Source of the DNA: Alphaproteobacteria bacterium
GTDB lineage: Bacteria > Pseudomonadota > Alphaproteobacteria > JAPOUT01 > G958296285
DNA: 64,000 bases
Reading direction: 5' to 3'
NCBI GenBank assembly: GCA_965209065.1
Contig: OZ242373.1
Coordinates: 646,202 to 710,201 of the forward strand
In this document: one piece after another, positions 32,061-35,000 of the stretch
Layout of the letters: each line of letters begins with the position of its first letter
How positions within the stretch are numbered: the stretch's first letter is position 1
Notes under the pieces: generated by a model
Databases searched by the model: none
What the model was told of the DNA's origin: nothing
Seen by the model: the letters and a program-made list of their open reading frames with translations, nothing else
Made by a program: the position numbers and the translations under genes

Positions 32061-35000
32061 TTACCGCTTCCTTATGATAAACACCGTATCATAGTTTGAC
32101 CTGTTCTTATTGCTGAAAGAAAAACATATACGGCTTAAATTATAACTAGCGTAATTTGCACGGCAATGCCCCAAAGCACTCGATAAAGGATGCATCCTTG
32201 CTTCCGCCTCACTTATCGATAAAGGCGCACCAGACGCACTTTTGCCGCGCTTATTGTTTTTAGAAAACTTCCAGTAATAAATATCCGAGCCGTCTCTCGC
32301 ATGCCGACTGCCGCAAAGAGGCTTGACCAGCTTTTCTAAATCAACCGGCTTGCTCCTCGCTACCGGACGGCAGAACAAAGTCACGTCTTTCCTCTTTATT
32401 TTTGTGATGTCTTTTCCAAAAATAATATCTTTAATCCCATCCTCCAATAGAGCATTGCTTGTGCTAGAGGTCATTCTCGTGCCCTTTTGGTTGCTCGCGT
32501 AAATGATAATCACGTCTTCCGTATCGCCAATGACCGTAATGCCCTTGCCTGCCGCAAGAGGCGGCACACCACTTTTGCTGTTAAGCGGCGCGATAGGCAA
32601 ATCAACCGGAACATGAATAATAATTGTGATAACCGACAACTCTAAAGGAAGCACCCCCGGCGATGTGGGCGGTGTGGTAGGAGGGAGTATCGGCGGTATC
32701 GGCGGGCGTATGACCGGACCTCTTATGTGAAAAAAGCCATCGGTCGCCCACAGGCTCACATCATTGGGGTTGCGGTAGGTTCTATAAAAAATCGTGGTAT
32801 CACCGACAAAGGTCGCAGGCGACAAAGAAGGAAAAGCATCAGCTTTCTGAAAAAGCTGAATACCGCCATTCGCGATGATTGTTGTGTTGGGAAGAAACGT
32901 AATCTTCCCTATATTATTACCGCTGTTTCCTGCTCCCGCGACAAATCTAAGCGCGCCCGAACCAATGTTGAGCGAGCCTTCTACCTCAATATCATTCGTA
33001 GCATTGACCGTAAGCTCCTGATTGCTTGGAGTTGCGGCAGCAATGCGGGAGAATAAAATAACCTTCCTGCCCGAAAGTGTAATCTGTGCCGTTGTTGAAA
33101 AACTAATACTTCCTGTCGCAAGCAAGGCTAGGTCATGCTCGCCGTTATCTATATCTGCCCCAAGGAATATATCCCCATTATTAAAAGCGTTTATAATGAA
33201 ATCACCATTAATGCCATCAATGCTCGCGGCTGTTAGGGAAACAGAATTAGCGCTAATGCCTCTTAAATTGGCAGGAAAAATAATGCTTCCTGTGGTTTCC
33301 AAAGACAAAGAATAATTTGCCATATTCAAAATGCCTTGACTGTCTATCTCATGACCAAATTGGAACAACAAGTCATCTGTGATGATAATATCATCGTCTC
33401 CAGCATCCAAGATGACATCTGCGCCAAATTCTCCATTGCCATCCTGCGCCCACGCACCAATGAAATTCGGATTGACTTCATCTTTATAATAAATTGTTAC
33501 TTCGCCAACAAAAGAAGACGGCGCAGCTGACGGAAAAGGCGTTTTATCTTGCCGCAAAGCGATGCCAGCATTCGCGGTTAAAATCGTCGACGGCATAAAA
33601 ATGATTTCGCCCTCATTGTTGGCGCCATCTCCTGCTGTAATGTCCATCGCACCTGAGCCAACATCAAGCTGAGCGTTTAGCGTCACGTCCCCTTTCGCCT
33701 CTATCCTAAGCGCTTGATTGCTGGGCGTAGAAGCGGTTGCCGCTGTTAGCGTAATGTCATTGGCAATAAGGTTTGTATCAACCGCGGTAGAGAAATTAAT
33801 CGCGCCAGCAACCGCATTCACCACTAAATCACCCGAGCCAATGTTAATGCCTAAAGGAAATAAAATATCAATGGTTTGCGCGGTAACGGTTAATTTTTTA
33901 TCACTCAACTGCAACCAATCTGGAAAAGCAAAGAGCGCACCTGTGAAATTAACCGAAAGCTCATTTCTTATAAATTCCACCTGAACGGCAGGCGAGGGAG
34001 TAAATAACTCGTTTACGTTTAGAGTCAAATTACCCGAGCCAATATCAAACAAGCCTGCTAGAGTTAATCTGCCTGTTGCCGTGATGGTTACGTTTTGATT
34101 ATTTGCTGTCGGCTCAAACGAAGTGAGTGAGATGTTTGTTGCTATTATTGTGGTTGGAGCATCTTTGTCGAAACTAACCGCGCTATTTTGTGCATTGGCG
34201 GTTAAGTTGCCGCTTGCTAGGTCGAGTGTCCCCGACAAAATAATATCAGCAGTTAGCCGTGAGGTAATAGTCAAGTCTCCATTCTTTCGCCCAACCCAAT
34301 CAGGAATAATGGTATCTTCTTGTCCGTCTAGAAACAGATTCGTATTCCCTCTAGTAAAAGTGGGCGAGCCCTCGAATGTATGCGTTATTAGGGTTAAATC
34401 ATTGCTAGTGCTTATACTAAAGAAGCCGACAAGCGATAAAACCCCTTCTGTTTCTATGGTTAAATCTTGCCCGCTTGCAAGTGGCGGTTGCGTGGATGTC
34501 AAAAAGACATCGGCGCCTTGTATGGTGGTGCTAGCACCTGTAGCAAAATTAATTGCGTCGTTAGCACTTAGGGTCAAGTTATGTCGCGTGGCGATACCTG
34601 TTTGGATGGATTCGGCTTTTAACGTGCCGCCGCCGATATTTATATTGTATGCTTGAATACTGATATCTTGGAGAAAAACAACATTGCCTGTAGCAGAAAG
34701 ACCTAAATTCCCTCGTCCTATGCCTCCATTATGTCCTCTAAAGTCCATATTATAAGCGTTGATTGTTAGGTCGCCGGTGGTTGCGACAAAGGAGGCAGAA
34801 GCCTCTAAAATATTATAGATAGCATCAAGGGTATCACTTTTTGTCTGTCTAGCGATTAGGCTAATGCTCCCCGCGTTAACGAAGATATTACTTTCTATGG
34901 TGATAGCATTTCCCTCTACAACAAAATGACCTAAGCCTAAATTAATATTGCTAGATATCACAATGCCCGATTGTGCATCGGTATTACTATTACGTATCGT

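Follow-up and report, generated by a model that had tools for sequence, protein, structure and literature searches.

A basic, cysteine-paired C-terminal tail behind a proline-rich spacer in an HMW-type TpsA protein of an alphaproteobacterium: a candidate periplasmic anchor

Among the TpsA proteins of two-partner secretion (TPS), the HMW subfamily has as its defining trait a C-terminal disulfide that tethers TpsA in the TpsB pore (PMC4873976). In HMW1 this tethering requires the last 20 amino acids together with a disulfide between C1518 and C1528 of 1536 residues, and the end of the protein is not surface-accessible (PMC3983070). HxuA carries its two cysteines at positions 855 and 861 of 884, with the last ~69 amino acids disordered and unseen in the crystal (PMC4873976), and in the model proposed for it the disulfide loop is periplasmic and the preceding segment lies within the HxuB barrel (PMC4873976; review PMC5422565). 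The passengers of type V secretion systems (T5SS) are typically Cys-poor, because a fold held by disulfides has difficulty in crossing the outer membrane (PMC8151025). Here we describe a 64,000-nt stretch of an Alphaproteobacteria bacterium (GenBank assembly GCA_965209065.1, contig OZ242373.1, positions 646,202 to 710,201 of the forward strand), referred to below as the window, and in it a tpsA-type gene whose 1488-aa product ends in a proline-rich spacer and a basic tail of 194 aa. By analogy with the HMW subfamily, we propose that this tail may be a disulfide anchor retained in the periplasm, unusually long and preceded by a proline-rich spacer, a reading that in our judgement could as readily prove wrong as right.

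When the TPS domain of the 1488-aa protein was compared with the PDB, it matched EtpA (E = 2.7e-18), HxuA (3e-13) and HMW1 (1.1e-5) and nothing else at E<=10, and the TPS domain of a 746-aa paralog encoded in the same window likewise matched only these three. The TPS structures of FHA, HpmA and CdiA were absent from the matches even at that threshold. Judged from these sequence comparisons, the domain is of the HMW type and not of the FHA/CdiA type. Since the TPS domains match only EtpA, HxuA and HMW1, a periplasmic tethering plug is better supported, and the effector or adhesin tip that an earlier reading of this DNA had favoured (hereafter the original prediction) is less well supported than a retention module of the HMW type. 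EtpA, from enterotoxigenic Escherichia coli, is the best match among solved TPS structures and is, like the protein described here, a long adhesin of beta-helical repeats; it differs in that it is described as a secreted adhesin, glycosylated by EtpC (PMC10284417, PMC8151025), and the similarity is confined to the N-terminal ~200 residues.

The cysteines of the protein follow the arrangement seen in HMW1, HMW2 and HxuA of Haemophilus influenzae, where a Cys-free beta-helical passenger of the same TPS type has closely spaced cysteines only at its C-terminus. Four cysteines are present in the mature 1488-aa protein (C1386, C1405, C1455 and C1468), all of them within the last 103 residues and none in residues 70-1385, a clustering with P ~3e-5 under uniform placement over the ~1419 mature residues. 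They are spaced as two pairs, C-X18-C and C-X12-C, the latter 20 residues from the end, and the protein has the HMW-type trait of a passenger that lacks Cys except for closely paired ones near its C-terminus. Two paralogs, of 3290 and 746 aa, are nearly devoid of other cysteines and also end in close pairs. The 3290-aa paralog has both of its cysteines among the 10 terminal residues (P ~1e-5), and the pair of the 746-aa paralog (C726-X11-C738) leaves the last Cys 8 residues short of the C-terminus, as far as C1528 of 1536 is in HMW1 (PMC3983070); its C-X11-C geometry matches the HMW1 anchor and resembles C855/C861 of HxuA. The original prediction had seen that the tail contains cysteines and had missed this pattern, namely that every mature Cys lies in the last 103 residues and that the paralogs are alike in this respect. 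The 3760-aa paralog has zero Cys, no proline-rich linker and no Cys-pair end; if the anchor reading is true, it would be released and not tethered.

The spacer that separates body and tail (residues 1275-1294 read PPIPPILPPTTPPTSPGVLP) reaches 10 prolines in 20 residues in its densest window, which begins at residue 1271, against 3.8% proline protein-wide, and its DNA holds a 9-bp tandem duplication (CCGCCGATA x2). The composition of the tail is markedly different from that of the body, with 8.8 vs 1.8% lysine and 6.7 vs 2.4% arginine (together 15.5% vs 4.2%), 2.1 vs 0% Cys and a pI of 9.8 vs 4.5. Within the tail, the proximal half contains strand-like strings (VITIIIHV, GITVIGD and DVIIIYAS) and is folded-like by its balance of charge and hydropathy, and the distal half is disordered-like, as is the tail of the 746-aa paralog; such a disordered-like terminal segment recalls the last 69 aa of HxuA (PMC4873976). 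The description given by the original prediction, a proline-rich linker followed by a distinct, basic, Cys-containing tail, is borne out, with all the strings it quoted present where it placed them, and the layout it ascribed to the 746-aa paralog, a Pro/Gln/Val/Thr linker and then a basic tail of ~55 aa, was found as described. In that paralog the linker (1401-1523, residues ~650-690) is built of PQVVT-like units of 5 residues repeated in tandem, and strains differ in how many they have: copies of 746 and 756 aa occur, plus a 717-aa frameshifted gene call, and the basic Cys-pair tail is kept despite this variation wherever the copy is intact. A variable linker followed by a kept tail would be the behaviour expected of a spacer that leads to a functional end. 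The tails themselves are unrelated, as had been claimed: in a shuffle test no similarity between paralog C-termini was significant, the best being that of the 1488-aa tail to the last 70 aa of the 3290-aa paralog, a score reached by 18 of 500 shuffles.

The module that the tail forms is real, and this species is the only one in which we found it. Its frame runs for 194 codons without a stop, against 7-20 stops in each of the five other frames, and the chance of such an open frame is 4.5e-6 by base composition, with 0 of 200,000 shuffles staying open. A codon-usage score trained on the housekeeping genes of the window gave 0.30 for the proximal half, ~0.22 for the body and -0.03 for the distal half, the coding frame scoring best of six in both halves. 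The 64-kb window holds no counterpart of the tail elsewhere (tblastn, blastn).

Copies from other strains point the same way. A search for exact copies of EF-Tu brought up two contigs of one ENA metagenome (ERZ25069786). The same locus at 99.4% identity (L002) encodes a 1483-aa ortholog whose tail is identical at the protein level, and a cluster look-up returned three full-length copies (P0005, P0006 and P0007, of which P0006 is the window's own protein, on an NCBI/ENA contig of 1,687,333 bp) and the fragments P0010 and P0001. Across the whole gene 26 substitutions separate the window from L002, and 21 are synonymous; the tail has two, both synonymous, and no non-synonymous change. Compared with a third locus, contig ctg49828 (L003), the 582-nt tail shows a single, synonymous change, and the 1355 nt upstream show 13 changes. 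These counts, small as they are and drawn from copies of one species, suggest that the tail is constrained at least as much as the body. The two fragments derive from L003, which has 7.7x coverage and differs from the window by single-base indels that are mostly deletions and mostly in homopolymer runs, one of them within a tRNA gene; we considered pseudogenisation as their cause and rejected it, homopolymer indels at such coverage being assembly errors.

Outside this species we found no relative of the tail. A phmmer search against 1.84 billion cluster representatives gave four matches. The sole real match is P0001, a piece of this very gene broken by a frameshift; three further ones (E 5e-7 to 6e-4, in many stretches) are internally repetitive proteins that we regard as artefacts. 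The tail belongs to no family in Pfam (E<=10) or NCBIfam, linker and tail together have no relevant match among all PDB chains (phmmer, E<=10), plasmids and phages hold no copy of the tail (tblastn), and scans of GTDB genomes, JGI metagenomes and IMG/VR returned no relative of the tail or of the protein. A single NCBI contig and a single ENA metagenome seem to be all that represents the lineage. The idea that the same tail might be found fused to other carriers thus came to nothing in all the representatives, plasmids, phages, PDB chains and families covered. A word-index protein search with the tail, residues 1000-1488 and the C-terminal 300 aa of the shorter, 746-aa paralog missed the queries' own cluster representatives (P0007, P0017), and we disregarded its negatives.

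From this layout we infer the following course of events. The beta-helix would be exported via a TpsB pore encoded elsewhere, and the Cys-containing C-terminal part would remain in the periplasm, where the close cysteines could be oxidised to one or two small disulfide loops. The resulting knot would be too bulky for the pore, and the fibre would be held on the cell. The 24-residue proline-rich stretch may serve as a stiff extended spacer, in or beside the barrel; at ~3 A per residue it would reach ~70 A, which exceeds the height of one barrel. Little would be required of the plug itself, as any bulky oxidisable knot might do, and it is because a plug needs little sequence information that unrelated, orphan paralog tails and the lack of an immunity gene would be accounted for. 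For the distal half at least, the proposed anchor comes close to the 'disordered anchor' which the original prediction had set against its own module.

Several observations weigh against this proposal. The tail, at 194 aa, is 3-10x as long as the known anchors (20 aa in HMW1, ~30-66 aa in HxuA; 20-66 aa overall) and, unlike them, it follows a proline-rich spacer. It has two Cys pairs, and its loops (X18 and X12) are longer than the X5 of HxuA or the X9 of HMW1. The anchor model gives the hydrophobic ~90 residues of the proximal half nothing to do, and the tail shows no similarity at E<=10 to the HxuA C-terminus, present in the PDB set as the 884-residue chain 4rm6. The closest PDB relative, EtpA, is described as secreted (PMC10284417), so an HMW-type TPS domain alone implies no tethering. 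Despite its four tpsA-like genes, the 64-kb window contains no TpsB transporter gene (POTRA/ShlB), and it also lacks an HMW1C-like glycosyltransferase gene, again unlike the HMW1 and HxuA systems; an enrichment of NXS/T sequons, which would hint at HMW1C-type glycosylation, was sought in the 1488-aa protein and not found. All copies are at least 99% identical, so the conservation of the cysteines is seen only across near-identical strains. AlphaFold2, run without alignment on segments of 299 and 194 aa, gave mean pLDDT values (its confidence score) of 34 and 32, and a control segment of beta-helix came out equally low; because the control scored just as low, these values are silent on disorder. 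Finally, a sigma70-like match within the distal tail (TTGCCG-16-TATAAT, 32166-32139), upstream of the tRNA, together with the weak codon score there, leaves room for a young, partly accidental extension.

Of the other explanations, the one that survives best is that of the original prediction, in which the tail would be a functional domain that is exported and then displayed or released where the fibre ends. It might be an effector directed at host or prey, or an adhesin tip specific to the lineage, and would require no immunity protein. The module is compositionally distinct, separated by a linker and conserved between strains, its proximal half is folded-like with a good coding score, 194 aa suits a domain better than a minimal anchor, and C-terminal functional domains of TpsA proteins are known (HxuA, PMC4873976; CdiA-CT, PMC5422565). 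However, no relative is carried by other proteins in the databases searched and no catalytic motif was recognised in the tail, while the cysteines lie only at the extreme C-terminus, which is the retained end in the HMW subfamily (PMC4873976), in a class of passengers that are typically Cys-poor (PMC8151025). We therefore regard an exported domain as unlikely. A more specific version, in which the tail or its hydrophobic proximal half would be an orphan functional domain of new fold, either a binding tip or an effector against host or prey, carried by an HMW-type TPS protein without immunity partner in a deep-branching uncultured bacterium, seems to us slightly less probable again.

Somewhat more doubtful still is an origin of the tail, or of its distal half, by accident, as an extension without a function of its own. 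Translation might have run on into what was once intergenic DNA upstream of the tRNA, or recombination at an island hot-spot might have left the tail behind as a scar. Such an origin would explain why no homolog was found anywhere searched, and it would sit well with a distal codon score of -0.03, with the disordered-like composition of that half, with the sigma70-like match inside the tail and with a gene that abuts the junction of a hypervariable island at a tRNA. Against it stand the 194 open codons and their low probability in the shuffles, the best-of-six score of the coding frame in both halves, tail substitutions between strains that are all synonymous, and a Cys-pair pattern that recurs in two paralogs with unrelated tails. 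Moreover, a young origin would be compatible with an anchor function.

FhaB offers a second precedent, one that by analogy fits less well in TPS type, size and cysteines. Its proline-rich region (27% Pro) is followed by a 98-aa extreme C-terminus (ECT) that is periplasmic and negatively regulates degradation of the prodomain, and that sends signals through the polypeptide from one side of the outer membrane to the other (PMC4542190). The order is the same here, a proline-rich region and then a strictly conserved C-terminal segment of ~100 aa, and both the 10 prolines in 20 residues and a tail whose amino-acid sequence does not vary among the three full-length strain copies could be read as a pro-region that is later removed instead of serving as a permanent anchor. 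This likeness is one of layout and not of homology. FhaB has a TPS domain of the FHA type, not the HMW/EtpA/HxuA type, and a prodomain of ~1200 aa that is degraded and is missing here; the tail has no similarity to FhaB in an exhaustive search that should include FhaB representatives, and a Cys-pair anchor is a trait of the HMW subfamily (PMC4873976). We consider removal of an FhaB-like pro-region improbable, marginally more so than an accidental extension.

The lack of toxin features had led the original prediction away from a module of the CdiA-CT type, and on this point we agree. Neither VENN nor the related motif [VIL][DE]NN occurs in any of the four TpsA proteins, no PT-VENN, FHA-2, toxin, pretoxin or immunity family of Pfam or NCBIfam was detected (Pfam shows the TPS domain only), and no open reading frame (ORF), immunity-like or other, lies between the stop of the 1488-aa gene and the tRNA gene that follows it. 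The only small same-strand ORFs near this tRNA-Met, of 25 and 38 aa, both overlap the tRNA gene, and beyond it lies a convergent GmrSD gene. The next features downstream are those that had been named, the tRNA-Met for the 1488-aa gene and a cytochrome P450 gene for the 746-aa gene (Table 1). For the further step to a host-directed effector or adhesin tip we found no evidence. A CdiA-CT-type interbacterial toxin whose immunity gene is lost or elsewhere shares with this protein only the general layout of a TpsA carrier with a variable C-terminus unrelated between paralogs, and it is very improbable given the motifs, families and immunity gene that are missing, the convergent next gene, a TPS domain that is not of the CdiA/FHA type, and the want of CdiA-type repeats, of an adjacent cdiB in the window and of any other carrier of the tail.

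Table 1. Coordinates of the tpsA-like genes, their parts and the adjoining features in the window
Feature	Position	Strand	Remarks
tpsA-type gene, 1488-aa ORF	32061..36527	-	ORF list and Pfam/NCBIfam
TPS secretion domain, HMW/EtpA/HxuA type, residues 98-267	35727..36236	-	Pfam PF05860, 3.3e-12; NCBIfam TIGR01901 (adhes_NPXG)
Beta-helical repeat body, acidic, Cys-free, residues 268-1270	32718..35726	-	composition and alignments within the window
Pro-rich spacer PVIRPPIPPILPPTTPPTSPGVLP, residues 1271-1294	32646..32717	-
Tail, 194 aa, basic, residues 1295-1488	32645-32064	-
Tail, proximal half, residues 1295-1385	32373..32645	-	hydrophobic, strand-like; folded-like composition, good coding score
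Tail, distal half, residues 1386-1488	32064..32372	-	basic, pI ~10; disordered-like composition, four Cys
3760-aa tpsA-like gene	36530..47812		reading frame differs from that of the 1488-aa ORF
3290-aa tpsA-like gene	47945..57817		in tandem with the 3760-aa and 1488-aa genes
Cys pair of the 3290-aa paralog, C3281 and C3289, its only Cys (LCFSVNSNICP-stop)	47948..47977	-
746-aa tpsA-like gene	1230..3470	-
Linker and tail of the 746-aa paralog, miniature of the 1488-aa layout	1233..1523	-	Pro/Gln/Val/Thr repeats, then basic ~55-aa tail
tRNA-Met(CAT)	31927-32003	-	57 nt past the stop of the 1488-aa gene
Cytochrome P450 gene, haem motif FGTGPHVCLGQR	1-1180	-	starts ~50 nt past the 746-aa gene and continues beyond position 1 of the window

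The 1488-aa gene is at the 3′ end of a tandem row of three tpsA-like genes, which sit between tRNA-Arg/tRNA-Pro (58009-58212) and tRNA-Met, and its body (residues ~270-1270) aligns at 24-37% identity with numerous segments of the two giant paralogs (3760 and 3290 aa). Translation probably starts inside the 1488-aa ORF, at a GTG at 36422 (V36, with AAGGAG 9 nt upstream) or an ATG at 36392 (M46), and the predicted signal peptide ends in ...TAAQA (residue 69). Directly after its cleavage site the window copy has a 15-bp tandem duplication (VPRDS VPRDS; 36306-36320, residues 70-74), which is missing from the two other full-length copies (1483 aa).

The tRNA-Met(CAT) has a C1/A72 mismatch atop its acceptor stem and is close to the E. 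coli initiator tRNA; it is probably an initiator tRNA-fMet. In Rfam only tRNAs were matched. A T9 run and the string TTGTTT-18-GATTAT are found in the 57-nt gap just upstream of it. From this tRNA to the tRNA-Tyr/Gly/tuf cluster (27200-31926) extends a strain-variable defence island, which in the window and L002 contains GmrSD, an SDR gene, a T5orf172 protein and a methylase of the Eco57I type. In a sister strain whose EF-Tu is identical, ~33 kb separate this tRNA-Met from tuf, of which the ends were read: at the L003 end (2570-12266) there are PLD-nuclease, SNF2-helicase and MmeI-type genes, and at the L001 end (1-9500) a giant protein with SPM, HemolysinCabind and S8-peptidase parts, an integrase and a HaeIII-type restriction-modification system. 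Sequence similarity between the sister strain and the window breaks off precisely at 31911, right after tRNA-Met. In a collection of ~15 billion proteins, EF-Tu (tuf, 25684-26874) has no companion in its cluster at 90% identity, and the cluster of RpoC (14163-18455) has no other members than copies from that one ENA metagenome. The organism therefore seems to belong to an uncultured lineage that has been sparsely sampled.

If the tail is indeed a periplasmic anchor, the tethering by a disulfide plug described for HMW1 and HxuA of Haemophilus would also operate in a distant uncultured lineage, and the plug would there be enlarged by a proline-rich spacer, ~190 residues and two Cys pairs. This would not open a long-standing question, and a specialist in type V secretion would not be greatly surprised by it. 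It would nevertheless offer a rule for annotation, since the TPS subfamily and terminal Cys pairs should be checked before a distinct C-terminal module of a TpsA protein is named as an effector or polymorphic toxin. Anchors of this kind would, moreover, seem to be replaced quickly enough for the paralogs of one genome to have nothing but the Cys pair in common.

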